From assembly GCA_038087875.1 (NCBI GenBank), contig CM075995.1:3040001-3104000 (forward strand): a DNA stretch of 64,000 bases, given 5' to 3'. The translations under genes were made by a program, and so were the position numbers. This document shows positions 11,916 to 61,117 of this stretch, piece by piece (the stretch's first letter is position 1; every line of letters begins with the position of its first letter). The notes beneath the pieces were generated by a model, which saw only the letters and a list, made by a program, of their open reading frames with translations, did no database searches and had not been told where the DNA came from. The DNA comes from Malacoraja senta. Lineage: Eukaryota.

Positions 11916-12057
11916 GCCACCTCATCCTCCTGGACACATAGACGATGTATTGGAGAAATGGTAGTCAATGTTCAAACAGCAATGTCCCACAAACAGCAAT
12001 GGGATAACGCCAAGACGGAGGGTCTTAATGATTGATGAATACATTTTATTCCTGCTC

Positions 12058-12134
12058 TTCAAGAACTCCGCCTCTGGATATGGACACCCCAAGCCAGTGC
12101 CGGTCCCAAGCCCAGACAAAGGAGGAAGGTTGGG
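12058..12134 (+). ncRNA. Twister ribozyme fold (P1-type with P3), partly decayed
   Basis: TTCAA(P1) GAA CTCC(P2) GCC [ctgg..ccag P3] G CCGG(P4) TCCCAAGC CCAG ACAAA GGAG(P2') GAAGG TTGGG(P1'); core matches the twister motif GCCGGUCCCAAGCCCGG. Confidence 0.75.
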
Positions 12135-12220
12135 CGTAGAGCTAGCACCCCTACCCCGTAAAACCCAAAACCAACTACGGAAACAGCAAGCATAAACGAT
12201 ACTGGAAACCGGCGTGAGAG
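12064..12220 (+). mobile_element. RTE-like LINE 5' leader fragment
   Basis: ggaggaaggttgggcgtagagctagcacccctaccccgtaaaacc resembles RTE-clade 5' leaders; no RTE ORF follows. Confidence 0.55.
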
Positions 12221-12796
12221 ATGGATCAACCACGATTGAATGGTGGAGTAGACTTGATGGGCCAAATGGCCTTATTCTGTTCTTATCACTTATGATCTTA
12301 TGATTAGACAAGAGTAGATACAGTTACCAGAGTAGGCGCCTATGGTGGTATGAAGGATGCTTGTCAGATCAGCACTGGAGGAACTCAACATGATAACGTG
12401 ACGCCCACAGAGACCTCGTGAGTAGCTGCTTCAGTAAATACTATCTCATCTTAAAGATCATGAGGGATGAAGCAGCGAGTTGGCGTAGATGGGGGCTATT
12501 TTCAGACTGGAATCTCACTGTGCCATATTCACATCAGCCATCAGATGAAAAGATATAGTTGATTTTCACACAAGGCTCAAAAGGAAAGTGAGTTTAATTT
12601 TTGTTTTAATTTAGAGATCCAGCGCTGTAACAGGCCCTACGGCCCAACGATTCCACGCCGACTGATTCAAAGATACTTTATTGTCACATGTACAGTGAAG
12701 TTCTTTGTTCTGCGCACAGCCCAGTAAATTCATACAGCAGACCTCACCGAGGCAGCGCACGAAAGAGTCCCCACGTTTCTGGTGCCGGCAAAGTTA

Positions 12797-18997: not shown

Positions 18998-19052
18998 GAC
19001 CAGCTAGCTCAGTCGATAGAGCATGGGACTCTTAATCCCAGGGTCGTGGGTT
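18998..19052 (+). pseudogene. tRNA-Lys(CTT) 5' portion, truncated in the T-loop, retrocopied
   Basis: gaccagctagctcagtcgatagagcatgggactCTTaatcccagggtcgtgggtt matches vertebrate tRNA-Lys-CTT GCCCGGCTAGCTCAGTCGGTAGAGCATGGGACTCTTAATCCCAGGGTCGTGGGTTCG; anticodon at 19031-19033. Confidence 0.9.
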
Positions 19053-19642
19053 GAGTATAGAAGTTGGGAAGTCATGTTGCAGTTGTATTAGACATTGGTG
19101 AGTGCATTTAGAATATTATGTTCAGTTCTGGGCACCATGTTATAGGAAAGATATTGTCAAGCTTGAAAGGGTTCAGAAAATATTTACGAGGATGTTGCCA
19201 GGACTAGAGGGTGTGAGCTATAGGGAGAGGATGAGTAGGCTGGGTCTCTATTCCAGGGAGCGTAGGAGGATGAGGGGAGATCTTATAGAGGTAGACAAAA
19301 TCATGAGAGGAATAGATGGGGTAGATGTACAGAGTCTTTTACCCAGAGTAGGGGAATCAAGGACCAGAGGACATACATTCAAGGTGAAGGGGAAAAGATT
19401 TAATAGGAACCCGAGGGGTAACTTTTTCACACAGAGGGTGGTGGGTGTATGGAATAAGCTGCCAGAGGAGCTAGTTGAGGCTGGGATTATCCCATTGTTT
19501 ATGAAAGAGTTGGACAGGTACATGTATAGGACAGGTTTGGAGGGTTATGGACCAAGCGCAGGCAAGTGGGACTAGCGTATGTGGGCGAGTTGGGCCATAG
19601 GGCCTGTTTCCACACTGTATCACTGTATGACTCTACGACTCT
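19053..19642 (+). mobile_element. 5'-truncated CR1 fused directly to the tRNA-Lys head
   Basis: EYRSWEVMLQLY..HLEYYVQFWAP..FFTQRVVGVWN; tail gactctacgactct; TSD aggagac at 18994-19000 and 19643-19649. Confidence 0.9.
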
Positions 19643-28062: not shown

Positions 28063-29476
28063 TCTATATTACTAAAAGTCTGATCTTGACCATTTCCTGT
28101 TGTTCTGTTGATGGATTTAGAAAAAACGCTGCCACTTAAGGCTGTGATTTTTGGCCATCTTACTCAGAGTCCCCCTCCGCTGCGCAGGAGAAGAAGATGT
28201 TTCCCATCGATGAAAAATAAAAGAGTTATTAATGTTTACAAAACGTTGAGATTCTCTCGCCTGAAGGCCACACCCCTTCCGGAGGGACTATAAAACCCAG
28301 AAGCGTTGAGTGCCCCAGTCAGTCTCTGCAAGATGGGGGAGCGAGAGGGTCACGTCTCTCAGTCTGAGCTGTGAATAACACTGAACACATGTCTACTAAA
28401 CTGTGAATGGTTTTACTGACCTGTCAGCGCCCTTAATGTGGTTTGAAAATGTAGTTTGGAAATGCTAAAGCTGTGTTGCCTTTGGTTTGGAAATGCTAAA
28501 GCTGTGTTGCCTTTGGTTTGGAAATGCTAAAGCTGTGTTGCCTTTGGTTTGGAAATGCTAAAGCTGTGTTGCCTTTGGTTTGGAAATGCTAAAGCTGTGT
28601 TGCCTTTGGTTTGGAAATGCTAAAGCTGTGTTGCCTAATTAAAGTTGCCTTGTCAAATTAAAGTTGCCTTGTCGAATTAAAGTTGCCTTGCCTAATTAAA
28701 GTTGCCTTGCCTAATTAAAGTTGCCTTGCCTTCTATATAATTAAAAGTCTAATCTTGACCACTTCCTGTTTGCGCTTTATATTGATTTTAGAAAAAATGA
28801 TACCACATACAGCTGTGATTTTTGGCCATCATACTCAGAGTCCCTCTCCGCTCATCAAGTGCTGAGGATTCTTCCCATCGATGAAAAATAAAAGTTATTA
28901 GTGTTTCAAAAATGTTGAGATTCTCTGTCCTGTCAATCACGCCATGAAGGCCGCGCCCCTTTTGGTGGGAGGCGAGAGGGACTATAAAACCCAGAAATGT
29001 AGGCGTGGCTCAGTCTCTGCAAGATGGAGTAGGGAGAGGTCACGACTCGCTGTCTTTAGTGGCCTTGCACCCTGCTTGAAATGGTATGAAACTGCACTTG
29101 TATCTAGTGGCCTTGCACCCTGCTTGAAGTGATAAGAAACTGCACTTGATTTTGGTGGCCCCGCACCCTGCTTGAAATGGAATTTCAAGGAATAGCCGTG
29201 AGTAAACTGCCAGCCCACCAGCCGTGAGTGAGTGAGCTGCCAGCACAACAGGCTTGAGTGACTGAACCGCCAGCCCAAGAATCCATTTGGCCCACAATAT
29301 CCATACTAGCCCTCCGGAAACCAGTCCCTTCAACCCACAACACCCATACTAGCGCTCCAGAAAGCCCCTCCCCCCCCGGGCCACAAATATTGGAATTGGT
29401 GGAGAGGTGGAATATTGTATTGGGGGACCAGCCCTCCCTTGAGAACATGGGACCCAACGGGTCCCACTTAGTCTAG
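28063..29476 (+). mobile_element. Non-autonomous Helitron with a duplicated 5' module
   Basis: A|TC start (tctatattactaaaagtc), second 5' start at ~28732, 3' hairpin tgggaccc-aac-gggtccca (29448-29466), then CTAG|T. Confidence 0.9.
28454..28730 (+). repeat. Internal minisatellites of Helitron 1 (31-bp and 19-bp units)
   Basis: tttggtttggaaatgctaaagctgtgttgcc about x6, then taattaaagttgccttgcc about x5. Confidence 0.9.
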
Positions 29477-29583
29477 TATATATATATAACTGTGATTATT
29501 ACTTTCACAGACATTCTCAGTATTGTGTAGACGCACACACACACACATGTACATGCACACACATACATTTGTATATATATATA

Positions 29584-31144
29584 CTAGACTAAGTGGGACC
29601 CGTTGGGTCCCAGCATCACACGGGACGGCTGGTCACCCAATGCAATATTCCACCTCTCCACCAATTCCAATATTGCTGGCCAGTGGGGGGAAGGGGGGGG
29701 GGAGGCTTTCTCTTGCGCTAGTATGGGTGTTGTGGGCCTAAGGTACTGTTTTCCAGAGGGCTAGTATAGACATTGTGGGCCGAATGGATTCTTGGGCTGG
29801 CAGCCAACTGTTGCAACGATTTTAAAAGCCAAGCCAAGGCCACAATTTGGCAGCAGCCACTCGACAACCAAAATCCATTTTGTGAACACAAACTTTTTAA
29901 AAGGCGAGGCAAACAATTGGGCAGCAGCCACCCGACAACCAAAATTCATTTTGTAAACAAACTTTTTAAAAAGGCGAGGCAAACTATTGGGCTGCAGCCA
30001 CCTGACAACCAAAATTCATTTTGTGAAAACAAACTTTTAAAAAAGACGTGGAAAACAATTGGGCAGCAGACACCCGACAACCAAAATTCATTTTGTAAAC
30101 ACAAACTTTTTAAAAAGGCGAGGCAAACAATTGGGCAGCAGCCACCCGACAACCAAAATTCATTTTGTGAACACAAACTTTTTAAAAAGGCGAGGCAAAC
30201 AATTGGGCAGCATCCACCCGACAACCAAAATTCATTTTGTGAACAGAAACTTTTTTAAAAAAGGCGAGGCAAACAATTGGGCAGCAGCCACCCGACAACC
30301 AAAATTCATTTTGTGAACACAAACTTTTTAAAAAGGCGAGGCAAACAATTGGGCAGCAGCCACCTGACAACCAAAATTCATTTTGGGAACACAAACTTTT
30401 TAAAAAGGCGAGGCAAACAATTGGGCAGCAGCCACCTGACAACCAAAATTCATTTTGTGAACACAAACTTTAAAAAAAAAGGCGTGGCAAACAATTGGGC
30501 AGCAGCCACCTGACAACCAAAATTCATTTTGTGAACACAAACTTTTTAAAAGGCGAGGCAAACAATTTGGCAGCAGCCACCTGACAACCAAAATTCATTT
30601 AGTGAACACAAACTTTAAAAAAAGGCGAGGCAAACAATTGGGCAGCAGCCACCTGATAACCAAAATTCATTTTGTGAACACAAACTTTTTAAAAAGGCGA
30701 GGCAAACAATTGGGCAGCAGCCACCTGACAACCAAAATTCATTTTGTGAACACAAACTTTTTAAAAGGCGAGGCAAACAATTTGGCAACAGCCGCATCGA
30801 GGGGATTCACCGTGGAGTAGGCGTTCAGTGTTATTCACAGCTCAGAGAGCCGTGACCCTCTCGCTTCCTGGGTCTGGCAGAGACTGAGTAAGGCATTACA
30901 CTTCCGGGTTTTATAGTCCCTCCCCCTGCCGCCAGCGGGGGCACCAGAGAGAATGACGATTAAAAAAACCCCATTAATTTCTCTCTGATTTTTCATCGAT
31001 GGGAAAAATCCTCCAGTCCCGGAAGGCGGAGGGGGGCTCTGAGCGAGGTGGCCAAAAATGACGGCCGTAGGTGGCGGTTTTCTCTCGGAAATCGCAGCAC
31101 CAGTGAGTCAAAAGCGGTCAAGATCAGACTTTTAGTAATATAGA
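29584..31144 (-). mobile_element. Non-autonomous Helitron, related family, opposite strand
   Basis: Minus-strand A|TCTATATTACTAAAAGTC start at 31144; same hairpin and CTAG|T end at 29584. Confidence 0.9.
29849..30790. repeat. 72-bp minisatellite, about 13 copies, inside Helitron 2
   Basis: Unit ggcagcagccacccgacaaccaaaattcattttgtgaacacaaactttttaaaaaggcgaggcaaacaattg. Confidence 0.95.
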
Positions 31145-32764: not shown

Positions 32765-33197
32765 TTAGACAGGTACATAGATAGGACAGTTTTACAGGGA
32801 TATGGACCAAACACAGGCAGGTGGGACGAGTGTAGATGGTGATTGTGAGTAGGCATGGGAAGTTGGGCTGAAGGACCTGTTTCCATGCTGTATGACTCTA
32901 TGACACTAGGTATTAGTTAATGTTAAACAGCTTATTTAAAGCTGGTTTGCCGTGGTGATTTTTCACATAGCAGGCAGGACGTTACATGACAAGACGTTGT
33001 TTGATCATGTGTATAGAAAATGTTTTCCAATGCTGGAGAGAACTTCACCTTTGGACGTGGATTGTAAGTGATTGCCAGGGCTATGAACAGTGATGACTCT
33101 CTTAAATTATCTGTTGCTAGGAGTCCAGAGCAGCAAAACATATATGAGAACTTTGCTTAGAGTGGTGAAGCATCGGAATAGGATCTTCAGCCCCTTC

Positions 33198-36100
33198 TCA
33201 AGTTCAAGTGAGTTTATTGTCATGTGTCATCGGACAATGAAATTCTTGCTTTGCTTCAGCACAACAGAACATAGAAGGCATTGACTACAAAACAGATCAG
33301 TGTGTCCATATATCATTATATAAATATATACACACATGAATAAATAAACTGATAAAGTGCAAATAACACATAATGGGCTATTAATGTTCATAGTTTTGTC
33401 CGAGCCAAGTTTAATAGCCTGATGGCTGTGGGGAAGTAGATATTCCTGAACCTGTTCATTGCAGTCTTCAGGCTCCTGTACCTTCTACCTGAAGGTAGCA
33501 GGGAGATGAGTGTGTGGCCAGGATGGTGTGGGTCCTTGATGATACTGCCAGCCTTTTTGAGGCAGCGACTGCGATAGATCCCCTTGATGGAAGGGAGGTT
33601 AGAGCCGATGATGGACTGGACAGTGTTTACTACTCTTTGTAGTCTTTTCCTCTCCAGGGCGCTCAAGTTGCCGAACCAAGCCACGATGCAACCGGTCAGC
33701 ATGCTCTCTACTGTGCACGTGTAGAAGTTAGAGAGAGTCCTCCTTGACAAACCGACTCTCCGTAATCTTCTCAGGAAGTAGAGGCGCTGATGTGCTTTCT
33801 TAATAGTAGCATCAGTGTTCTCGGACCAGGAAAGATCTTCAGAGATGTGCACGCCCAGGAATTTAAAGCTCTTGACCCTTTCAACCATCGACCCATTGAT
33901 ATAAACGGGACTGTGGGTCCCCAACCTACTCCTTCCAAAGTCCACAATCAGTTCCTTGGTTTTGCTGGTGTTGAGGGCCAGGTTATTGTGCTGGCACCAT
34001 ATGGACAGTTGCTCGATCTCTCTTCTGTATTCTGACTTATCCCCATCAGTGATACGACCCACAACAGTGGTGTCGTCAGCGAACTTGATGATCGAGTTCG
34101 CACTATGGCTGGCTATGCAGTCATGATTATAGAGTGAGTACAGCAGGGGACTGAGCACGCAGCCTTGAGGTGCTCCCGTGCTGATTGTTATCGAGGCTGA
34201 CACATTTCCACCAATACGAACAGACTGTGGTCTGAGAATGAGGAAGCCGAGGATCCAATTGCAGAGGGATGCGCAGAGACCCAGTTCTGCGAGTTTGGTA
34301 ACCAGCTTGGAGGGGATGATTGTATTAAATGCCGAGCTGTAATCGATGAATAACAGCCTGGCATATGAGTTTTTGTTGTCCAAGTGGTCCAGAGCGGAGT
34401 GGAGGGCCAGCGAGATCGCATCCACCATTGATCTGTTGTGGCGGTAAGCGAACTGCAGTGGGTCCAGGTTCTTGTCGAGGTAGGAGTTGATGTGCACCAT
34501 AATCAACCTCTCAAAGCACTTCATCACCACAGGCGTTAGTGCCACAGGTCGATAGTCATTGAGGCACGTCACCTTACTCTTCTTGGGCACTGGTATAATT
34601 GCTGCCCTTTTGAAGCAGGTGGGAACCTCAGACCTCAGAAGTGAGAGGTTGAAAATGTCCGTAAAACTCCAGCCAGTTGGTCGCACAGGTTTTTATAACG
34701 CGACCAGGTATACCATCAGGTCCAGGCGCTTTTCGAGGGTTCACTCCTCTGAAGGATTTCCTGACGTCGGCCTCTGTGACTGAGACTGAAATACCATCAC
34801 AGCGAATGGGAGCTCGGGAAGGCACATCGGTGTTCTCCCTATCAAAGCGTGCGTAAAACTCATTGAGCTCATCAGGGAGTGATGTTTCGCCGACATTCGA
34901 GCTGCCTCCCGATTTTACCTTGTAGGAGGTGATTGCATTCAGGCCCTGCCACAGCTGCCGAACATCTGTCTCTTCCTCCAGTTTGGAGCAGAAGTCCCTT
35001 TTGGCCTTTTTGATGGCCTTACCAAGGTCGCATCTGGACTTCTTGTAGACCACTGTATCATCAGACATGAATGACCGGTGTCTGGTCTTCAGAAGAGTGC
35101 GGATCTCAAAGTTCATCCAAGGTTTGGGAAATACTCGGAAGGTTTTTGTAGGGATGCAGTCCTCCACACATTTCTTAATGAAGTCTGTAACGACTGTGGC
35201 GTATTCGTTCAAGTCCGTTGCCGAGTCCTTGAACATTGCCCAGTCTACAGACTCCAAACAGTCCTGGAGTTGTTCCTCTGCCCCCCCCCCCACTCCCGAC
35301 CAGTTCTGCACTGTCCTCACCTCTGGGGGTGCGCTCTTTAATTGCTGCCTGTAGGCAGGAAGAAGCAGCACCGTGGTATGGTCAGATTTACCGAAGTGAG
35401 GGCGAGGGATAGAGCGGTAGGCATTCTTGATGGTGGTGCAGCAGTGGTAGAGGGTGTTTGGTCCTCTGGTGCAGCAGGAGACATGTTGGTGGAAGTTAGG
35501 GAGTGATTTCTTTAGGTTTGCCTTATTGAAGTCCCCAGCAATGGTGGTAAATGCCTCGGGGTAAGACGTCTGGTGTTTGTTGACCACAGCGTGCAGCTCC
35601 TCCAGTGCCAGACGGACGTCTGCCTGCGGTGGGATGTAGACCGCGGTCAGGATGATGAAGGTGAATTCCCTCGGAAAGTAGAAGGGACGACACTTCACCG
35701 CCAGATGTTCGAGGTGTGGAGAGCACGAGTTGGACAGGACTGCCACGTCTGAGCACCACGCAGAGTTGACCATGAGGCAGACGCCTCTTCCTCTCCCTTT
35801 CCCAGATGCCAGTGTACGGTCTATACGGTGGATGGAGAACCCTTCAGGCTGGACCGCTGAGTCTGGGGAGCTGAGGGTGAGCCATGTCTCGGTAAAACAG
35901 AACACAGAGCATTCCCTCAGCTCCCTTTGATAAAGCAGTCTTGCCCTTAAGTCCTCCACTTTATTTTCAAGGGACTGTACGTTGGCCAGTAGGATAGTAG
36001 GGAGAGGGGGCCGAAGTCCCCTGCGCTTCAGTCTGACCTGAAGTCCTGCCCGCCGGCCACGTTTCCGGACACAATGGAGGCTTCCCCTTTGTTTCCAGGC

Positions 36101-36522
36101 GCTGAGTCTACTGTACCTGCTGTTTCTGCGGACCTGCGCTGGAACAGGGATTCCTTTCAAGACGGCAGCTCCAGCTCCGTAACGAACGGGGGTACATTCA
36201 AAGTCGGCAGCTCCAGCTTCATTGTTCCTGGAGGATCCAGCTCGTCAGCTCTGGAGGTCATCCCGTGGTTTCAAGGTGCCGTACCTGGGTTCCTCAGTCG
36301 GGTCGGGTGTTTCACAGCCAGCATGGGAAAGTTTAAAGTCCGGGGCTCCCGCAGCTGCGGGAGATGGTGAAATTGCGAGAGCCTTGAGGTGCTCAAGCAG
36401 CTTGTCTGAAATGGCACCGTTTTCTGCCGTTTTCCTGATCCAGGTGAGTTGATTGAAGTTGTATCTAAGTCTTTTAGGGTCTGGTCCTCCACAAACGTCG
36501 CCGCAGGCAGGCGCCATCTTGA
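33198..36522 (-). mobile_element. Near full-length Rex1/Babar non-LTR retrotransposon
   Basis: 5' aagatggcg start; AP endonuclease (LANVQSL, FTETWL, AGDFN, SDH) then RT ([24 protein letters not shown]); 3'UTR ending gacaataaactcacttgaacttgag. Confidence 0.95.
33388..36160 (-). pseudogene. Rex1/Babar endonuclease-reverse transcriptase ORF, frameshifted near 34680
   Basis: Overlapping ORFs 34628-36160 (APE domain) and 33388-34686 (RT domain). Confidence 0.9.
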
Positions 36523-36737
36523 GAGGGTACAAGATACTTTATCTATGCTGAGCAAGATAGCCTACCTAAGCTCGTCTCATTTGCCCATATACAGCTACAC
36601 CTTTCCTATCCAAGCACCTGACCAAATGTCTTTCACATGTTGTTATTGTATCTGCCTCAACTACCTTCTCTGGCAGCTCAATCCATACGCTCACCACCCT
36701 CTGTGTGAAAAAGTTGCACCTTAGGGTACTGTTCATC

Positions 36738-36975
36738 GGGCGCCACAGTAATGCAGCAGCGGAGCTGATCTTTCACAGCGCCAGTGACCCGGGCTCGATC
36801 CTGACTGCGGGTGTTGTCTGTGCGGACTATGTACGTTCTCCCCATGACCACATGGGTTTTCTCCGGGTGCTCCGGTTTCCTTCCACAGTCCAAAGATCTG
36901 CAGGTTTGTAGGTTGATTGGAATCTGTATATTGACCCTGGTGTGCAGGATGTGAAAGTGGAATAACATGGAACTA
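36738..36975 (+). mobile_element. V-SINE variant
   Basis: gacccgggctcgatcctgact, V-domain gggttttctccgggtgctccggtttcc. Confidence 0.8.
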
Positions 36976-37478
36976 GTCATAGAGTCGTACAGTGTGGAAA
37001 CAGGCCCTTCGGCCCAAGTTGCGCAGACCAACCAACATGCCCCATCTACACTAGTCCCACCTGTCTAAGTTTGGTCCCTCTAAACCTGTTCTATCCATGT
37101 ACCTGTCTAAATGTTTTGTAAGCGTTGTGATAGTACCAGCCTCAACTACCTCCTCTGGCAGCTTGTTCCATACACCTACGACTCTTTATATAAAATAAGT
37201 TACCTCTTGGTTTCTTATTATGTCTTTTCCCCTTTGCCTTAAACCAATGTCCTCTGGTTTTCAACTCCCATACTCCCTGCATTTACCAAATCCTCTGACG
37301 TTCCGGAGAGAATGTTCCAAGTCTATCCAACCTTGCCTTGTAGCTGAGACACAGTAATCCAGTCAGCGTTCAGGCAAACCTCCTCTGCACCCTCTCCAAA
37401 GCCTCCATCTACATCTGTCTTGTAATGGGGTCGGCAGAATGCCCACAATACTTCCAATATAGCCTAACTGAAGTCTTA

Positions 37479-37990
37479 AATGCCTGTCTCACGAGTCTGC
37501 GGTCATTGGCGGCGAAACAGGAACTGTCTACCGCTCCTGGGCCGCCAGAGACCGCAGGCTCAGTCAAACGCACAATTCCGGGGCCGTGCAGCGTTGTTCC
37601 CAACACCGCACGGTGCTAAAAAAAACCCAACACTGTCCAAAAATATGTTCCTACTGCACAGCCGCCGCCAGTGAGGCACGAGTGTGGCACGGTCACCGCC
37701 ACAGCCGCCGCCAGTGAGGCATGAGTGCGGCACGGTCACCGCCACAGCCGCCGCCAATGAGGCACGAGCGCCGTGAGCCGAACCTGCACCGCCACAGCCG
37801 GCGACAGTGAGGTACGTGTGCGGCACGGCCGCCGCCACAGCCCCGCGATCCGAAAGACGTCATCAGCCGAAACCGCAAGCTCGTGGAACCGGACGTACTT
37901 GGCCCCCGCACAGCATCCGTGCGGCGCTCTCGTGGTTGCCGTGCGGTCCCCTCTTCCGGCGAACGACCGCAAACCCGTGGGACAGAGCTT
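37479..37990. mobile_element. GC-rich PIF/Harbinger-type MITE in a CR1 fragment (duplicate at 58771-59302)
   Basis: TTA TSD; TIR ctgtctcacgagtctgcggtc / gaccgcaaacccgtgggacag; internal gccgccgccagtgaggcacgag repeats. Confidence 0.85.
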
Positions 37991-38754
37991 TTACAGAGCT
38001 TCTTCATGGCTTCCGATCATATTGTTATTTTATCGTAATGCAATCATATTGTAATTTTACAACAATTTGGTGTCATTGACAGGATCTAACCAACATGTGG
38101 AAGGGAAAAGATCAGACTTCACGAGAAGCAGAGGGAGAGGGAGAAAATATAAATATTGGCTGCGCCACTGCGTCTTGTTGCCCAGTTATTGATACAAAAT
38201 TGAGTTGCTTGAAGAGTGTAATTGGAATATAGTAAACACTGGGACGAAGCTACTCAATGCATTTACGGATTGCTTCATGGAAGTGGACCTTTCGGTAATA
38301 AAGTCAGAGAAACATTCAGCATGAAACAGGCCCATTAGTCCAACTAGTCCATACCAACCAAGATGCCCCACCCCCACCCCACTAAGTTAGTCCCATTTGT
38401 ATGCATTTGGCCCATATCCCTCTAAAGCTTTCCTATCCAAGTACCTGTCCAAATATCTTTTAAATGTTGTTATTGTACCTGAAATAATTGCCTATTCTGG
38501 CAGCTCTTTCTAGATACCTATCACTCTCAGTGTGGAAAGTAATCATGAGGAAGGTGTAACTCAAGTTGCTTGGCTATTACTTTCTGCAGTTCAGGGGTTA
38601 TGAAAAGAAAAAGATGCATTAAAAGCTGAAATTCAGGTATGGGTGGAGGAAAAGAAAATATTCAGCGGCATATTTCCACTGTTGCTTTAGCAGAGACAGA
38701 ACAATCTGTCCATAGAGTGCAGAAAAAGGTGGAGGATAAAATGTCTAACTCGGC

Positions 38755-38971
38755 TTCAGAGTTCAGAGATACAGCGCGGAAATAGGCTCTTCGGCCCACC
38801 AAGACTGCAACAACTAACAATCATCCCATACACCAACACTATCGTACACAATACGGACAGTTTGCAATTTTATTGAAGCCAATTAACCTATAAACCTGTA
38901 CGTCTTTGGAGTGTGGGAGGAAACCGGAGCACCTGGAGAAAACCCGAAGGAGAACGTACAAACTCTGTACA
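38755..38971 (-). mobile_element. V-SINE 3' half (its 5' half is at 44678-44758)
   Basis: Breaks at caaactctgtaca and resumes as ctctgtacagacggcacccgtag at 44678. Confidence 0.85.
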
Positions 38972-39592
38972 TATAACCATATAACCATATAACCATATAA
39001 CAATTACAGCATGGAAACAGGCCATCTCGACCCTTCAAGTCCATGCCGAACACTATTTCTCCCCTAGTCCCATATACCCATCCAATCTATTTTTAAATTA
39101 TAAAATCGAACCTGCCTCCACCACTTCCACTGGAGGCTCATTCCACACAGCTACCACTCTCTGAGTAAAGAAGTTCCCCCTAATGTTACCCCTAAACTTC
39201 TGTCCCTTAATTCTCAAGTCATGTCCTCTTGTTTGAATCTTCCCTACTCTCAGTGGGAAAAGCTTATCCACGTCAACTCTGTCTATCCCTCTCATCATTT
39301 TAAAGACCTCTATCAAGTCCCCCCTTAACCTTCTGCGCTCCAAAGAATAAAGACCTAACTTGTTCAGCCTTTCTCTGTAACTTAGTTGCTGAAACCCAGG
39401 CAACATTCTAGTAAATCTCCTCTGTACTCTCTCTATTTTGTTGACATCCTTCCTATAATTAGGCGACCAAAATTGTACTCCATACTCCAGAATTGGCCTC
39501 ACCAATGCCATGTACAATTTTAACATTACATCCCAACTTCTATATTCAATGCTCTGATTTATAAAGGCCAGCACACCAAAAGCTTTCTTTAT
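38972..39592 (-). mobile_element. 5'-truncated CR1, same subfamily as 40421-44677
   Basis: ORF 39098-39595 KKAFGVLAFINQSIEYRSWD..; (GGTTATAT)n tail. Confidence 0.95.
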
Positions 39593-39594
39593 CA

Positions 39595-39644
39595 TGCGCA
39601 GCGCAGACAGGAAGTGGTCAAGATGAGACTTTTAGTTATATAGA
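39595..39644 (-). mobile_element. Helitron 5'-end stub
   Basis: Minus strand tctatataactaaaagtctcatcttgaccacttcctgt matches the Helitron starts at 28063, 28732 and 31144. Confidence 0.8.
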
Positions 39645-39649
39645 TATAC

Positions 39650-39692
39650 AGATGCACATATACACAAACTCAAAAACAAATGATAGTAGTGC

Positions 39693-39756
<64 letters not shown>

Positions 39757-40265
39757 GTCTATTGTAGTTTAGAGCTTATTTGAGGTTGTAATGTTTAATA
39801 GCCTGAAGGCTGCAGGGAAGAAGCTGTTCCTGAACCTGGACGTTACAGTCTTCAGGCTCCTGTGCCTTTTTCCCGATGGGAGTGGTGAAATGTGTGTGTG
39901 GCCAGGATGGTGTGGGTCTCTGATGATGTTGGCTGCCTTTTTGAGGCAACGACTCCGATAAATCCCTTCGATGATGCGGAGGTCAGAGCCGGTGATGGAC
40001 TGGGCAGTGTTCACAACTTTTTCCAGTCCTGGACATACAAGTTGCCGAACCAGGCCATGATATGCTCTCTATGGTACTCCTGTAGAATGTTCAAGAGAAT
40101 CCTCTCTGACATACCGAATCTCCGTAATCTTCTCAGGAAGTAGAGGCGTTGATGTGCTTTATTTTTAATTGCATCAGTGTGCTGGGTCCAGGAAAGATCT
40201 TTGGAAATATGCACGCCCAGGAATTTGAAGTTTTTGACTCTCTCCACCCCGTTGATATAAACAGG
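39650..40265 (-). mobile_element. Rex1/Babar 3' fragment containing (TAA)n
   Basis: [30 protein letters not shown]. Confidence 0.9.
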
Positions 40266-40522
40266 ACAAAAACAGGATCATTACATAAAGCTACAGTTTA
40301 GTTTAGTTCAGATTATTGTCACGTGTAGCAAGGTACAGTGAAAAGCTTTTGTTGCCTGCTATCCAGTCTGCGGAAAGACAATGCATGATTACAATCAAGC
40401 CATGTATCATAGACACATGATATAACCATATAACCATTATAGCACGGAAACAGGCCATCTCGGCCCTTCAAGTCCATGCCGAACACTTTTTATATTTTTC
40501 CCTTCTTTCTTCTTACTTCCCC

Positions 40523-43330
40523 CTAGTCCCATCTACCTGCACTCAGACCATAACCCTCCATTCCTTTCCCATCCATATACCCATCCAATCTATTTTTAAA
40601 GGATAAAATCGAACCTGCCTCCACCACTTCCACTGGAAGCTCATTCCACACAGCTACCACTCTCTGAGTAAAGAAGTTCCCCCTAATGTTACCCCTAAAC
40701 TTCTGTCCCTTAATTCTCAAGTCATGTCCCCTTGTTTGAATCTTCCCTACTCTCAATGGGAAAAGCTTATCCACGTCAACTCTGTCTAACCCGCTCATCA
40801 TTTTAAAGACCTCTATCAAGTCCCCCCTTAACCTTCTGCGCTTCAAAGAATAAAGACCTAACTTGTTCAGCCTTTCTCTGTAACTTAGTTGCTGAAACCC
40901 AGGCAACATTCTAGTAAATCTCCTCTGTACTCTCTCTATTTTGTTGACATCCTTCCTATAATTAGGCGGCCAAAATTGTACTCCATACTCCAGAATTGGC
41001 CTCACCAATGCCTTGTACAATTTTAACATTACATCCCAACTTCTATATTCAATGCTCTGATTTATAAAGGCCAGCACACCAAAAGCTTTCTTTACCACCC
41101 TATCTACATGAGATTCCACCTTCAGGGAACTATGCACAGTTATTCCTAGATCCCTCTGTTCAACTGCATTCCTCAATTCGCTACCATTTACCATGTACGT
41201 CCTATTTTGATTTGTCCTGCCAAGATGTAGCACCTCACATTTATCAGCATTAAACTCCATCTGCCATCTTTCAGCCCACTCTTCCAAATGGCCTAAATCT
41301 CTCTGTAGACTTTGAAAATCTACTTCATTATCCACAACACCACCTATCTTAGTATCATCTGCATACTTACTAATCCAATTTTCCACACCATCATCCAGAT
41401 CATTGATGTACATGACAAACAACAGTGGACCCAACACAGACCCCTGAGGCACCCCACTAGTCACCGGCCTCCAACCTGACAAACAGCCATCCACCATTAC
41501 TCTCTGGCATCTCCCATTCAGCCACTGTTGAATCCATCTTGCTACTCCACCATTAATACCCAACAATTTAATCTTCTTAACCAACCTTCCATGAAGAACC
41601 TTGTCAAAGGCCTTACTGAAGTCCATATAGACAACATCTACTGCTTTACCCTCATCAATTTCCCTAGTAACCTCTTCGAAAAATTCAAGAAGATTTGTCA
41701 AACATGACCTTCCAGGCACAAATCCATGTTGACTGTTCTTAATCAGACCCTGTTTATCCAGATGCTTATATATATTATCCCTAAGTATCCTTTCCATTAA
41801 TTTGCCCACCACTGACATCAAACTAACAGGTCTATAATTGCTAGGTTTACTCTTAGAACTCTTTTTAAACAATGGAACAACATGCGCAGTACGCCAATCC
41901 TCCGGCACTATTCCCATTTCTAATGACATTTGAAATATTTCTGTCATAGCCCCTGCTATTTCTACACAAACTTCCCTCAATGTCCTAGGGAATATCCTGT
42001 CAGGACCTGGAGACTTATCCATTTTCATATTTTTCAAAAGTGTCCACACTTCCTCTTCTTTGAATCTCATAGTTTCCATTGCTACTCTGCTCATTTCCCT
42101 TACCTCACATAATTAAATATCCTTCTCCTTGGTGAATACCAAAGAAAAGAAATTGTTCAATATCTCCCCCATCTCTTTTGGCTCTGCAGATAGCAGTCCA
42201 CCCTGACTCTCTAATGGACCAATTTTATTCCTTGTTATCCTTTTGCTATTAATATAGCTGTAGAAACCCTTTGGGTTTACTTTCACCTTACATGCCAAAG
42301 CAACCTCATATCTTCTTTTAGCTTTTCTAATTTCTTTCTTAAGATTCTTTTTACATTCTTTATACTCCTGCAGCACCTCATTTACTCCATGCTGCCTATA
42401 ATTATTGTAGATCTCTCTCTTTTTCCGAACCGTGTCCAATTTCCCGTGAAAACCATGGCTCTTTCCAATTTTTACTATTTCCTTTCAACCGAACAGGGAC
42501 ATAAAGATTCTGTACTCTTAAAATTTCACCTTTAAATGTCCTCCATTTCTCTTCTACATCCTTCCCATAAAACAACATGTCCCAATTCACTCCTTTTAAA
42601 TCCTTTCGCATCTCCTCAAAGTTAGCCAGTCAAAAATCTCAACCTTAGGTCGAGTTCTGACCCTCTCCATAATTATATTGAAACTAATGGTATTGTGATC
42701 AATGGACCCAAAGTGCTCCCCAACGCATACCTCAGCCACCTGCCCTGTCTCATTTCCTAACAGGAGGTCCAGCACTGCCCCTTCTCTTGTAGGTACCTCT
42801 ATGTATTGCTGCAAAAAACTATCCTGCCCACATTTTACAAACTCCAAACCATCCAGCCCTTTTACAGAATGTGTTTCCCAGTCTATGTGTGGAAAATTGA
42901 AATCTCCCACAATCACTACCTTGTGCTTACTACTAATATCTGCTATCTCCTTACATATTTGCTCTTCCAATTCTCGCTCTCCATTAGGCGGTCTATAATA
43001 CAACCTATTAGTGTTGCTACCCCTTTCCCATTTCTCAGTTCCACCCAAATAGCCTCCCTAGACGAGCCCTCTAATCTATCCTGCCAAAGCACTGCTGTAA
43101 TATCTTCCTTGACAAGCAATGCAACACCCCCACCTCTTGCCCCTCCAATTCTATCACCCCTGAAGCAACGAAATCCTGGAATATTTAGTTTCCACTCACA
43201 GCCCTCCTGCAACCATGTTTCACTGATCGCCACAACATCATACTTCCAGGTGTCAATCCTGGCTCTAAGCTCATCCACCTCTCTTACAGTGCTCCTAGCA
43301 TTTAAATATACACATTTAAGAAACCCACCA
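40523..43330 (-). pseudogene. CR1 ORF2 (APE endonuclease + RT); frameshifts and a stop in the N-terminal half, 523-aa RT part open
   Basis: YLNARS, ISETWL, VGDFNFP, DHN; RT: QHGF, DFSKAFDKV, GVPQGSVLGP, KYADD. Confidence 0.95.
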
Positions 43331-43463
43331 CCACTTATTCTCTGTTTATTATCTTTTTCTTCTTTCTCCCCTACATTTTGGGTCCGAGTGCTTCCCTTCT
43401 CTGCCTCCTGCCTCACACCCTGACTACTAGCTTTCCCTATTCGAGTCCCTCCCCTCAACCGTT

Positions 43464-44391
43464 CTAGTTTAAAGTCTCCCCAGTTGCCTTTGCAAATCTC
43501 CCCGCCAGGATATTGGTCCCCCTCGGGTTCAAGTGCAACCCGTCCTTTTTGTACAGGTCACACCTTCCCCAAAAGAGGTCCCAATGATCCAGAAACTGGA
43601 ATCCCTGCCCACTGCACCAGTCCCTCAGCCACGCATTTATCCTCCACCTCATTCCATTCCTACTCTCACTGTCTCGTGGCACAGGCAGTAATCCTGAGAT
43701 TGTTATTTTTTTGGTCCTTCTCCTTAACTCTCCTCCCATCTCCCTAAATTCTCCTTTCAGGACCTCTTCTCTCTTTCTACCTATGTCATTGGTACCTATA
43801 TGTACCATGACCTCAGGCTCCTCTCCCTCCGATTTCAGGATATCTTGGACGCGTTCAGACACCTCCCTGACCCTGGCACCAGGGAGGCAAACTACCATCC
43901 GGGTCTCCTGACTGCATCCACAGAATCGCCTATCTGACCCCCTAACCATAGAGTCCCCTATTACTATTGCCCTCCTCTTCTTTTCCCTACCCTTCTGAGC
44001 AACAGGGCCGGTCTCTGTGCCGGAGGCCCGGCCGCTGTCGCTACCCGCAGGAAGGCTGTCCCCCCCAACAGTACTCAAACATGAGTACTTATTTTCAAGG
44101 TGTACAGCCACCGGGGGTACTCACTAGTCCTTGCCTCTGCCCCTTGCCCTTCCTAACCGTGACCCACTTGTCCGCCTCCCGTGGTCTTGGAGTGACCACC
44201 TCCCTATAACTCCTTTCTATAACCTCCTCACTCTCCCTGATCAGACAGAGGTCATCGAGCTGTTGCTCCAGGTTCCTAACACGGTCCCTTAGGAGCCCCA
44301 TCTGGACACAGATGTGGACGTCTGGAGGGGTATCAGACTCCATGACCTCCCACATCTGACATCCAGAACAGTAAACTGCCCTGGCCCTCAT
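43464..44391 (-). pseudogene. CR1 ORF1: Cys-rich N-terminus, coiled coil and SGNH/GDSL esterase; frameshift near 44100
   Basis: CSGCQMWE; VIGDSMVR, VHIGTND, DGLHLN esterase blocks. Confidence 0.9.
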
Positions 44392-44919
44392 TCTCCCCTT
44401 CTGTACCTGGGATAATATACAAAGCCTTACCCTGGATTCAATACAAAGCCTTACCCTGGGTACAAGCCAATCAGCGGCTTCCCCTAGTCCGTTTCCACAA
44501 ATCAGTGGCTTCCTCAAGCCCACTTATTTTGAAGTGTGAACTGCGGATGGAACGTTGCAGAGTTTGGTTCCTCCTCCCTCTGTAACGGCTCCTGGGCCTC
44601 TGCTGAAACAAGCCCCGTGATGGGTTTTTGAACCTACCGCCCGGACGTCGCTCCTCCCTCTGTAACGGCTCCTGGGCCTCTGTACAGACGGCACCCGTAG
44701 TTAGGATTGAGCCCGGGTCGTAAGGCAGCGACTCTACTGCTGCCCCACCGTGGCGCCCCACAGCTTTGATAGTTACTGTTATATTAATGAATAAAATATC
44801 TCTGAGATGCAGGATGTGAGCATTAAATCCATCATTGATAAAAGACTGGGATCCTGACATTTGGGCCTTTACTGAAGATGAGAGAATGGACGGAAATGGA
44901 GGAAGAAGCAAATGGCACA

Positions 44920-45755
44920 GAGTCATAGAGACATAGAGTCATAGAGTGATATAGTGTGGAAACAGGCCATTTGGCCCATATCCCTCCAAACCTATCCTAT
45001 TCATTTACCTGTCTGCATTTGGCCCATATCCCTCCAAACCTGTCCTATCCATTTAACTGCCCGCGTTTGGTCCATATCCCTACAAACCTGTCCTATCCAT
45101 GTACCTGTCTAACTGTTTCTTAAATGTTGGGATAGTCCCAGCCTCAACTACCTCCTCTGGCAGCTTATTCCATACACCTGCCACCCTTTGTGTGAAAAAG
45201 ATACCCTTCAGATTCCTATTAAATCGTTTCTCATTCACCTTAAATTTATGCCTCTGGTCCTCGATTCACCTACTGTGCATCTACCCGATCTATTCCTCTC
45301 ATCATTTTATGCACCTCCATAAGATCACCCCTCATCCTCCAGCGCGCCAAGGAATAGAGTCCCACTCTCAACCTCTCCCTGTAGCTCAGACCCTCTAGTC
45401 CTGGCAACATCCTCGTAAATCTTCTCTGTACTCTTTCCAGCTTGACAACATCTTTCCTATAACATGGTGCCCAGAACTGAACACAATACTCTAGATGCGG
45501 CATTACCAACGTCCTATACAACTGCAACATGATCTCCCAACTTCAATACTCAAGACTAATGAAGGCCAATATATCAAAAGCCTTTTTGCCCACCCTATCA
45601 ACCTGCACCTACACCTTCAAGGAACCATGCACCTGCACTCCTAGATCCCTCTGCTCTACAACACTCTCCAGAGCTCTACCATTCACCGTGTACGTCCTGC
45701 CCTTGTTAGACTTCCCAAAATGCAACAACGCACATTTCTCTGTCTTAAATTCCAA
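44920..45755 (-). mobile_element. CR1 3' fragment with a ~48-bp local triplication in its tail region
   Basis: HLEYCVQFWAP..; catttggcccatatccctccaaacctgtcctatccat x3 at ~44968-45110. Confidence 0.85.
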
Positions 45756-46478: not shown

Positions 46479-47052
46479 CAACATTCCCAACAACTCTTAG
46501 CATTTAAGAAGTATTCGGACTTGAAAGGTACAGGAAGACGACTAAAATGTTGCAATTCTTCTGCAGAGGCTCAGTGTAGTCTACTGTCTTGCACTCTTAT
46601 ACTTGGTATTATTGTGCCTAGATTATAGCAGGATTGTCACTGAACTGTATGCGGAAAGATAACTTCACGGTACTTGCATACACTTGACACTAAAGTACCA
46701 TCGATGCATTGCAGTTCAACCCTTAATAGTTAACAAATCTAAAGTAATGGCAGGATAACAGTCACAGCAGTGTTGGGTAGTCTGTGATTATTCCCAGACA
46801 GAGCTGCAGGATATAGTAAAACACAATAAACAACTATAACGGGAAACCTTAGGGGCGTGCTCAACACCGCTCTGGGACCAAGCAGCGGATGCTATCTAGC
46901 TTGCTAATCAGGAGCGGCGGAGGTTAGACACAAAGCGCTGGAGTAACTCAGTGAGTCAGGCAGCATCTCTGGAGAAAAAAAATGGATGATGTTTCGGGAC
47001 CCTTCATTAGGAGTTTTCTCCGTAGAGCCCGTGATCACTAAGATCTTGCGGG

Positions 47053-47053
<1 letters not shown>

Positions 47054-47117
<64 letters not shown>

Positions 47118-47212
47118 AAGCAGTTAGACAGGTATATGGATAAGACAGGTTTGGAGGGATATGGTCCAAATTCTGGCAGGTGGGACGAGTGTAGCTGGGA
47201 CATGTTGGCCGG

Positions 47213-54439: not shown

Positions 54440-57400
54440 GGAGTCCAGAGCAGCAAAACATATATGAGAACTTTGCTTAGAGTGTGAAGCATCGAAATAG
54501 GATTCTTCAAGCCCCTTCTCAATTTCAAGTGAGTTTATTGTCATGTGTCATAGGACAATTTAAATTCTTGCTTTGCTTCAGCAAACAGAACATAGAAGGC
54601 ATTGACTACAAAACAGATCAGTGTGTCCATATATCATTATATAAATATATACACACATGAATAAATAAACTGATCAAGTGCAAATAACACATAATGGGCT
54701 ATTAATGTTCATAGTTAGTCCAAGCCAAGTTAATAGCCTGATGGCTGTGGGGAAGTAGCTATTCCTGAACCTGGTCGTTGCAGTCTTCAGGCTCCTGTAC
54801 CTTCTACCTGAAGGTAGCAGGGAGATGAGTGTGTGGCCAGATGGTGTGGGTCCTTGATGATACTGCCAGCCTTTTTGAGGCAGCGACTGCAATAGATCCC
54901 CTCGATGGAAGGGAGGTCAGAGCCGATGATGGACTGGGCAGTGTTTACTACTCTTTGTAGACTTTTCCTCTCCAGGCGCTCAAGATGCCGAACCAAGCCA
55001 CGATGCAACCGGGTCAGCATGCTCTCTACTGTGCACCTGTAGAAGTTAGAGAGAGTCCTCCTGGACAAACCGACTCTCCGTAATCTTCTCAGGAAGTAGA
55101 GGCGCTGATGTGCTTTCTTAATAGTAGCATCACGTGTTCTCGGACCAGGAAAGATCTTCAGAGATGTGCACGCCCAGGAAATATTAAAAGCTCTTGACCC
55201 TTTCAACCATCGACCCATTGATATAAACGGGACGGTGGGTCCTCAACCTACTCCTTCCAAAGTCTGCAATCAGTTCCTTGGTTTTGCTGGTGTTGAGGGC
55301 CAGGTTATTGTGCTGGCACCATATGGACAGTTGCTCGATCTCTCTTCTGTACTCTGACTTATCCCCATCAGTGATACGTCCCACCAACAGTGGTGTCGTC
55401 AGCACTATGTCCGGCTACGCAGTCATGAGTATAGAGTGAGTACAGCAGGGGCTGAGCACGCAGCCTTGAGGTGCTCCCGTGCTGATTGTTATCAAGGCTG
55501 ACATATTTCCACCAATACGAACAGACTGTGGTCTGAGAGTGAGGAAGTCGAGGATCCAATTGCAGAGGGATGCGCAGAGACCCAGTTCTGCGAGTTTGGT
55601 AACCAGCTTGGGAGGGGATGATTGTATAAATGCCAAGCTGTAATCGATGAATAACAGCCTGGCATATGAGTTTTTGTTGTCCAAGTGTCCAGAACGGAGT
55701 GGAGGGCCAGCGAGATCGCATCCACCGTTGATATGTTGTGGCGGTAAGCGAACTGCAGTGGGTCCAGGTTTTTGTCGAGGTAGGTGTTGATTTGCACTAT
55801 GATCAACCTCTCAAGCACTTCATCACCACAGGCGTTAGTGCCACAGGTCGATAGTCATTGAGGCACGTCACCTTGCTCTTCTTGGGCACTGGTATGATTG
55901 ATGCCTTTTGAAGCAGGTTGGGAACCTCAGACCTCAGAAGTGAGAGGTTGAAATGTCCGTAAAAACTCCAGCCAGTTGGTCGAACAGGTTTTAGAACACG
56001 ACCAGGTATACCATCAGGTCCAGGCACTTTTCGAGGGTTCACTCCTCTGAAGGATTTCCTGACGTCGGCCTCTGTGACTGAGACTAAACATACCATCACA
56101 GCGAATGGGAGCTCAGGAAAGGCACATCGGTGTTCTCCCTATCAAAAGCGTGCGTAAAACTCATTGAGCTCATCAGGGAGTGATGTTTCGCCGACATTCA
56201 AGCTGCCTCCTGATTTTGCCTTGTAGGAGGCGATTGCATTCTGGCCCCGCCACAGCTGCCGAACATCTGTCTCATCCTCCAGTTTGGAGCAGGTCCCTTT
56301 TGGCCTTTTTGATGGCCTTACCAGGGTCATATCTGGACTTCTTGTAGACCACTGTATCATCAGACATGAATGCCCAGTGTCTGGTCTTCAGAAGAGTGCG
56401 GATATCAAAGTTCATCCAAGTTTCTGATTGGGAAACACTCGGAAGGTTTTTGTAGGGATGCAGTCCTCCACACATTCTTCTTAATGAAGTCTGTAAACGA
56501 CTGTGGCATATTCGTTCAAGTCTGTTGCCGAGTCCTTGAACATTGCCCAGTCTACAGACTCCAAACAGTCATGTAGTTGTTCCTCTGCCCCACCCCCCCC
56601 CCCACCCCCGACCAGCTCTGCACTGTCCTCACCTCTGGGGGTGCGCTCTTTAATTGCTGCCTGTAGGCAGGAAGAAGCAGCACCGTGGTATGGTCGGATT
56701 TACCGAAGTGAGGCGGAGGGATAGAGCGATAGGCATCCTTGATGGTGGTGTAGCAGTGATCGAGGTGTTTGGTCCTCTGGTGCAGCTAGGAGACATGTTG
56801 GTGGAAGTTAGGGAGTGATTTCTTTAGGTTTGCCTTATTGAAGTCCCCAGCAATGGTGGTAAATGCCTCGGGGTAAGACGTCTGGTGTTTGTTGACCACA
56901 GCGTGCAGCTCCTCCAGTGCCAGACGGACGTCTGCCTGGTGTGGGATGTAGGCCGCGGTCAGGATGACGAAGGTGAATTCCCTCGGAAAGTAGAAGGGAC
57001 GACACTTCACCGCCAGATGTTCGAGGTGTGGAGAGCACGAGTTGGACAGGACTGCCACGTCTGAGCACCACGCAGTTGACCATGGCAGGCAACGCCCCCT
57101 CCTCTCCCTTTCCCAGATGCCAGTGTACGGTCTATACGGTGGATGGGAGAAGCCCTTCAGGCTGGACCGCTGAGTCTGGGGAGCTGAGGGTGAGCCATGT
57201 CTCGGTAAAACAGAACACAGAGCATTCCCTCAGCTCCCTTTGATAAAGCAGCCTTAAGTCCTCCACTTTATTTTCAAGGGACTATACGTTGGCCAGTAGG
57301 ATAGTAGGGAGAGGGGGCCGAAGTCCCCCGCGCTTCAGTCTGACCTGAAGTCCTGCCCACCGGCACGTTTCCGGACACAATGGAGCTTCCCTTTGTTTCC

Positions 57401-60400: not shown

Positions 60401-61038
60401 CCCTCCATTCCTTTCTCGTCCATATACCCATCCAATCTATTTTTAAATTATAAAATCGAACCTGCCTCCACCACTTCCACTGGAGGCTCATTCCACACAG
60501 CTACCACTCTCTGAGTAAAGAAGTTCCCCCTAATGTTACCCCTAAACTTCTGTCCCTTAATTCTCAAGTCATGTCCTCTTGTTTGAATCTTCCCTACTCT
60601 CAATGGGAAAAGCTTATCCACGTCAACTCTGTCTATCCCTCTCATCATTTTAAAGACCTCTATCAAGTCCCCCCTTAACCTTCTGCGCTCCAAAGAATAA
60701 AGACCTAACTTGTTCAGCCTTTCTCTGTAACTTAGTTGCTGAAACCCAGGCAACATTCTCGTAAATCTCCTCTGTACTCTCTCTATTTTGTTGACATCCT
60801 TCCTATAATTAGGCGACCAAAATTGTACTCCATACTCCAGAATTGGCCTCACCAATGCCTTGTACAATTTTAACATTACATCCCAACTTCTATACTCAAT
60901 GCTCTGATTTATAAAGGCCAGCACACCAAAACTTTCTTTATGCGCAGCGCAGACAGGAAGTGGTCAAGATGAGACTTTTAGTTATATAGATATACAGATG
61001 CACATATACACATACTCAAAAACAAATGATAGTAGTGC

Positions 61039-61117
<79 letters not shown>

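Follow-up and report, generated by a model that had tools for sequence, protein, structure and literature searches.

A truncated copy of an RTE-type retrotransposon starting at a predicted twister ribozyme in the skate Malacoraja senta

The window analysed here is a stretch of 64,000 nucleotides from the genome of Malacoraja senta. The 162 bases at 12064-12225 very probably represent the 5' terminus of an old LINE of the RTE clade which is present in few copies and the copies of which start at the predicted cut of a twister ribozyme that likely freed the element RNA from host read-through transcripts; this copy was later truncated and is probably nearly inactive. It is the only piece of the RTE element found in the window. 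Its identity with the majority sequence of the family is 93.8% over 12065-12225, and this divergence of about 6% is similar to that of the other copies.

Results

The twister core of the window copy

The covariance search with the Rfam twister-P1 model (RF03160), which had been suggested as a check in the initial annotation, gave a significant match at 12059-12133 covering model positions 1-68 of 68 with 58.5 bits (E 5.2e-12 with 2.5 kb searched, 1.3e-10 with the whole window searched). The score is lower than the Rfam gathering score of 67.2 bits, as are the other scores of the family; the copies have decayed and are devoid of their own 5' P1 strand. No further twister copy was detected in the window by covariance scans or by scans for the L4 motif, which occurs once. 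The minimum free energy fold of 12057-12135 does not adopt the twister shape and is no better than the folds of shuffled sequences (z = +1.33). This result is uninformative since the twister is a double pseudoknot, and the support comes therefore from the covariance model and from the family.

The strands of P2, the L4 loop, the P3 hairpin and the CCGG/CCAG pairing of P4, which had been read from the sequence in the initial annotation, were each recovered at their place, and the possible P1 (TTCAA/TTGGG) is present in register around G^AA with five of five pairs (Table 1). The catalytic A 12064 and the L1 3'-strand G 12125 are both present. Pseudoknot T2 is intact, and T1 contains a C-A mismatch (12107/12127). 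The core has changed at 12078 (P3), 12114 (P4) and 12127 (T1), with CpG-type decay among these changes. Position 12114 is an A; CCGG is kept at this place in 12 of the 31 family copies examined, while CCAG is common to five. The occurrence of GAAGG where GAGGG was expected was also borne out: GAGGG is found in 19 of the 31 copies, and GAAGG in the window copy only.

Table 1. Features of the twister-headed RTE copy and its CR1-type tail (positions of the window)
Feature	Position	Strand	Basis
Host flank giving the 5' P1 strand and the G at -1, outside the element	12058-12063	+	flank single-copy; flanks of other copies unrelated
P1 5' strand TTCAA, host side	12058-12062	+	
G preceding AA	12063	+	
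Type-P1 twister core including P3, beginning at the predicted cleavage-site A	12064-12134	+	RF03160, family comparison, published mutant matrix
AA at the predicted cut site	12064-12065	+	
P2	12066-12069/12121-12124	+	
T2 (GC)	12070-12071 with 12110-12111	+	
P3 stem	12074-12077/12094-12097	+	
P4	12100-12103/12112-12115	+	
L4	12104-12111	+	
GAAGG	12125-12129	+	
TTGGG, 3' strand of P1	12130-12134	+	
Predicted hairpin directly 3' of the ribozyme, overlapping the 3' P1 strand, followed by an A-rich run	12128-12165	+	single-sequence folds
Rest of the RTE 5' leader	12135-12225	+	majority comparison and ORF position
10-base microhomology, fusion point	12216-12225	+	9 of 10 identical; comparison of the window with 13 CR1-tail rows and the RTE majority
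3' tail (79 bases) of a CR1-type LINE of high copy number, with short TTATGA-type repeats at its end	12226-12304	+	

Family copies start at the predicted cleavage site

A search of the genome (1.94 billion bases) with 12040-12240 as query revealed 38 matches, most of which begin at query positions 24-28, corresponding to 12063-12067 of the window. Together with near-full-length RTE copies in the same genome, these at least 38 5'-end matches show that the element had been wrongly described as an orphan. Thirty-one copies were examined (30 returned loci and one from the genomic Rfam search), seven weaker matches being outside this set. Five of them are cut further in, and 26 reach P2. The homology had been proposed to begin at the AA of 12064, and indeed 16 of these 26 5'-complete copies begin with AA behind flanks that are unrelated between copies; among the ten that do not, four start with another base followed by A.

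In the Rfam search of the genome, 61 candidates were scored. All 22 twister matches, the best of which has 63.1 bits, fall on copies of this RTE family, and no other twister family was found among the candidates scored. By our criteria, a fully intact core is present in one of the 31 copies (L002). As no genomic match passes the gathering score and a single core is intact, ribozyme activity is proposed for the ancestor.

A shared start does not necessarily involve a ribozyme. The twister-like sequence could be a conserved 5' RNA structure serving protein binding or translation, with a promoter defining the start, and internal promoters do give shared 5' ends in other LINEs. However, the start falls exactly on the end of the twister product, and the family majority keeps every catalytic and pseudoknot position. 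Furthermore, cleavage of near-identical cores from Schistosoma has been shown both in vitro and in yeast (PMC8501958). The promoter explanation is considered highly improbable.

A duplicate of the first bases of the element was found just upstream of five of 25 copies (score of at least 10), compared with 0.13% of random flank windows. The duplicated stretch covers the first 10-20 bases in L002, L009, L012, L016 and L025, and in L002 it separates the target-site duplication from the AA. These duplicates may stem from renewed annealing by the reverse transcriptase where its template physically ends.

The autonomous-type element and its deleted derivatives

Eight longer stretches were fetched in order to read the full element. 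Long copies measure about 3.2 kb and display one ORF, coding for an endonuclease followed by a reverse transcriptase (Exo_endo_phos, E 2e-5, just over the cut-off; RVT_1, E 7e-15), no ORF1 and a short tandem 3' tail. The expectation that an RTE ORF follows the twister was thus confirmed in the form of a single APE-RT ORF. None of the eight long loci contains an intact ORF: the longest stop-free stretch has 303 codons, and one frameshift remains in the majority sequence. The best protein relatives are single-ORF proteins of about 1000 amino acids with 52-64% identity, the named ones being from amphioxus, tunicate ('CFDP2-like', a label which we take to denote an RTE-derived domain), electric eel and nematodes. 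In the endonuclease tree, which holds no named RTE reference such as Perere-3 or BovB, the skate element is grouped with the amphioxus, tunicate, electric eel and nematode proteins (99/99). On the basis of its architecture and its named neighbours, it probably belongs to the RTE clade.

First-look candidates amounted to at least 38 for the 5' end, at least 65 for the RT region and at least 571 for the 3' end, which is the usual 5'-truncation gradient. Target-site duplications were recognised by eye in four of the 14 copies with a 3' end, that of L015 directly adjoining the AA, and no clear one was seen in the remaining ten.

Internally deleted copies, in which both the 5' and the 3' ends are present, make up 11 of 30 loci (L002, L022, L013, L014, L015, L030, L007, L017, L008, L025 and L029) and display eight distinct junctions. 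Three of the junctions are each present in two unlinked copies, which indicates that some of the deleted derivatives have transposed again. They form small families and not one amplified SINE. Six of the 11 are joined at nearly one point, some 100 bases from the 3' end, which points to either a minimal 3' signal or a hotspot of switching. The initial annotation had left the choice between a relic of a twister-capped RTE and a derived non-autonomous family; the autonomous-type element and internally deleted derivatives both exist in the genome. The near-identical loci L023 and L024 (segmental duplicate) contain a copy that is 5'-truncated as well as internally deleted and has received another insert at the junction. 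About 3 kb from one RTE copy, an open ORF for a GPR139-like receptor was noticed (L034:499-1428, minus strand). It belongs to a large chondrichthyan expansion, and the named rows among its best 120 matches are all from shark, ray or skate.

Truncation of the window copy and its joint to a CR1-type tail

The leader behind the core, estimated earlier at about 90 bp, comprises 91 bases and reaches 12225, five positions past the previously assigned end at 12220. In the long copies, the first in-frame ATG lies about 17 bases beyond this end, and no coding sequence is kept. As proposed, an unrelated CR1 tail follows. The CR1 label of this tail is an assumption, based in part on relatives of the tail which follow RT ORFs inside the window. 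A search with the tail gave at least 1970 first-look candidates, 40 of which were scored at 90-95%.

The joint between RTE leader and CR1 tail is crossed by the window copy alone. The other 37 matches extend at most four bases past it, and among all 38 no second copy with the same joint, as an amplified ribozyme-CR1 chimeric family would give, was met. The window copy does not have the RTE 3' end of the bipartite form either. No target-site duplication adjoining the RTE-CR1 unit was detected, the longest shared word having six bases and lying 30 bases away. A paralogous empty site was not found, since the sequences upstream of the unit and beyond 12310 are both single-copy. The window copy is a truncated relic that occurs once.

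Such a unit could have been formed in one step, if the CR1 machinery had started copying a CR1 tail and then, within the microhomology, continued on a twister-cleaved RTE RNA as its new template, so producing 12064-12304 as a chimeric retrocopy with a ribozyme head and a CR1 tail. Both parts lie on the same strand, the unit begins at the cleavage A and ends at the CR1 3' end, the joint matches in nine of ten bases, and no further RTE sequence is present in either flank; template switching has moreover been proposed as a route to chimeric retroposons (PMC7245038). On the other hand, the missing target-site duplication and the failure of the unit to multiply speak against such a chimera, and with the high density of CR1 tails here, an RTE copy beside a CR1 copy, followed by deletion, is easily obtained. 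A one-step origin is regarded as fairly unlikely, and at the joint itself a deletion is considered more probable than a template switch, the data being compatible with both.

P1, flank and likely activity of the window copy

The flank at 11922-12063 is single-copy in the genome, and every other copy has a different flank, in agreement with the suggestion that the 5' strand of P1 is supplied by flanking DNA. Five of five P1 pairs are given by 3.3% of random flank positions, and a perfect P1 is present in two of the 16 AA copies. Selection for P1-forming flanks was not seen among the family copies (mean of 2.8 of 5 pairs versus 2.5 by chance, p=0.19). The perfect P1 of the window copy, coming from host DNA, is compatible with chance. 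The G in front of the AA, which had been noted as a departure from the usual U^AA, is present but does not constitute a defect: the base at this position is G in seven of the 16 AA copies, T in four, C in four and A in one, and G*AA is reported to cleave (PMC8501958).

The changes at 12114 and 12127 are equivalent to G34A and G47A of the rice twister Osa-1-4 (Kobori and Yokobayashi, 2016, PMC5113685), the L4 and L1 of which map one to one onto the skate sequence (Osa-1-4 positions 20-35 and 45-49). In the published matrix, the relative activity of G34A is 0.86, that of G47A 0.51 and that of the double mutant 0.13, where the lowest activity class of the scan starts at 0.20. The value of 0.13 reads identically from both matrix rows, and the expected rescues by C21U and C27U confirm the columns; it is an end-point measured on another scaffold, without P3 and with a different base at -1, whereas the window twister has a P3 and a G at -1. 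In natural twisters, pseudoknot defects are described as hurting more than stem defects, with a broad tolerance overall (PMC11662667). Taking these data together with the two substitutions, the window copy is probably nearly inactive as a ribozyme.

The opposite reading would be that the host has kept an active ribozyme which cuts a host transcript, with selection for the perfect P1. The complete P1, the intact catalytic A and G, the third-best Rfam score among the 22 genomic matches and the presence of the insertion in three other organisms (see below) would fit such a role, and single P4 or pseudoknot defects often leave activity (PMC11662667). The divergence from the majority is nevertheless similar to that of the other copies, the changes in P3, P4 and T1 include CpG-type decay, the equivalent double mutant retains little activity, perfect P1 stems arise at 3.3% of flank positions and in two of the 16 AA copies, and the hairpin described below is predicted to outcompete P1. 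Finally, the search of the ORFs identified no host gene in the window. A host function is judged to be extremely improbable.

A predicted hairpin behind the ribozyme

Single-sequence folds predict a hairpin directly downstream of the core (Table 1). In the window copy it is predicted to be about 5 kcal/mol more stable than P1 and to capture part of the 3' P1 strand. A hairpin followed by an A-rich run is predicted 3' of the ribozyme in each family folded. In a poor alignment of 21 rows with the hairpin set by hand, 46% of the cells were paired, and a slid control gave an equal value. An alignment of ten rows produced six hairpin pairs, three of them with two-sided changes, at -1.96 kcal/mol. 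Covariation for this hairpin across families is weak and only suggestive.

The insertion in other organisms

In three of four sequencing runs, which are labelled as three other organisms, there are contigs that extend from the unique flank into the ribozyme with roughly 90-94% identity. This implies that the insertion predates the split of these organisms. The fourth run gave no bridging contig. Among the contigs listed for the four runs, none crosses the RTE-CR1 joint and none joins 12063 to 12305, repeats being known to break such contigs. No RNA dataset is among those listed as containing this sequence.

Other elements in the window

A segment of about 9.5 kb occurs twice, at 33120-42639 and 54440-64000 (95.5% identity over 6.0 kb and 98.6% over 3.6 kb), each copy containing an RT ORF of 529 codons. 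A near-full-length CR1-type LINE lies at 40523-44938 (minus strand), with an RT ORF (RVT_1, E 6e-35) and, upstream of it, part of an ORF coding for a GDSL esterase domain. Another LINE at 33388-36244 (minus strand) shows an RVT_1 match and then an ALKBH8_N match, in ORFs of 434 and 538 codons lying in different frames. A minisatellite at 29842-30793 consists of 13 copies of a 72-base unit with 92% matches. The inverted-repeat elements at 29430-29630 and 47046-47123, with weak scores for miRNA models, are probably MITE-like palindromes, and a truncated tRNA-like piece at 18998-19053 (28.8 bits, just below the cut-off) is probably a SINE head or a tRNA pseudogene.

Relation to known systems

The closest known system is Perere-3, an RTE-clade element of Schistosoma mansoni which carries T-variant twisters at its 5' end (Liu et al., 2021, PMC8501958) and in which the target-site duplication gives rise to P1. 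Both are type-P1 twisters with P3 and share the same P2, T2, P4, L4, GAGGG and UUGG strand. In both, the copies start with AA, the 5' P1 strand is given by the flank or the target-site duplication, and a single APE-RT ORF is followed by a short tandem 3' repeat. The skate family differs by its P3 sequence, its cartilaginous fish host, its low copy number and its decay, with no intact ORF in its long loci, as well as by internally deleted derivatives which keep the ribozyme; the window copy differs in being truncated and CR1-tailed. In the available text of that study, the ribozyme is tied to an element in Schistosoma only. Its supplement lists T-variants as bare sequences for catfish, piranha, arowana, seahorse, cyprinid, cichlid, poeciliid and snake, and some of the bony-fish and snake sequences display the same start and downstream bases as the skate family. 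A term search of the same supplement gave no occurrence of Callorhinchus or Rhincodon. The literature search revealed no report of a twister-capped RTE in cartilaginous fish; a survey of more than 1000 species including fishes (PMC11662667) may hold such sequences.

Bipartite non-autonomous RTE LINEs, in which an internal deletion leaves the 5' and 3' ends, have been described (Kojima, 2018, PMC5786205; Kojima, 2020, PMC7245038), and the retention of their 5' end has been linked to 5' ribozymes, the HDV-like ones being cited (PMC5786205). The 11 deleted skate loci resemble these elements, with a twister instead of an HDV-like ribozyme, and the window copy departs from them by its CR1 tail in place of the RTE 3' end. 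The HDV-like ribozymes found 5'-terminally in R2, RTE and further LINEs (cited in PMC6765202 and PMC5786205) have the same role, i.e. freeing the element from a host co-transcript, and belong to a different ribozyme class.

Metagenomes were searched with an exact core pattern taken from the skate family, which gave at least 120 loci in a redundant set; the pattern fixes the first bases of the 3' P1 strand, the U/G make-up of which is therefore not informative there. A downstream stretch of 400 bases or more was present in 36 loci, of which 13 showed a same-strand match to an RTE-type protein and 23 showed none. The metagenome RTE proteins placed in a tree are 24-40% identical to the skate family and fall on several long branches, without a named reference. 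As the same core precedes RTE-type proteins in such divergent loci, the twister cap appears not to be special to the skate family. In four metagenome contigs (L081, L119, L121 and L126), assigned to divergent RTE-type lineages, an intact twister core is followed by open ORFs of 1003-1052 codons.

A wider interpretation would combine a clade-wide RTE twister cap, from plants to cartilaginous fish and fit for any host DNA, with a one-step CR1 chimera as the seed of a ribozyme-headed SINE. The 3' P1 strand would then consist of U and G only, each pairing with two partners, and the conserved hairpin would take over this strand after the cut. As a whole, this combination is clearly unlikely.

Proposed mechanism

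The preferred reading remains that of a ribozyme-headed RTE element with a later truncation. By analogy with Perere-3, a copy would be transcribed from a host promoter. The twister would then cut 5' of the AA, whichever base precedes it and with P1 being optional, as demonstrated in vitro for the near-identical Schistosoma cores. The cleaved RNA would be reverse-transcribed up to its end, cleavage and copying to the cut end being extrapolated from Perere-3, and new copies would start with AA behind arbitrary DNA, which is the footprint found in the genome; some of them repeat a short stretch of their first bases in front. Host DNA supplies the 5' P1 strand by chance, as it does in the window copy. 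Internal deletions have led to derivatives with both ends, some of which have transposed again. In the window copy, the CR1 tail would have been joined to the leader via the microhomology of ten bases. The simplest route would be a deletion during the CR1 insertion or microhomology-mediated repair at a later time, with loss of the RTE body and of the target-site duplication. Neutral decay would finally have affected P4 and pseudoknot T1.

Significance

The window locus itself is a probably dead fragment which adds no new principle, and both the architecture and vertebrate twisters have been published before. With the skate family, the one demonstrated role of a twister, the freeing of RTE retrotransposon RNA, would be extended to vertebrate elements whose individual copies show the ribozyme together with the RTE ORF and the 3' tail. 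This likely explains the bare twister sequences listed in fish genomes, as well as the exact 5' end kept by RTE derivatives.
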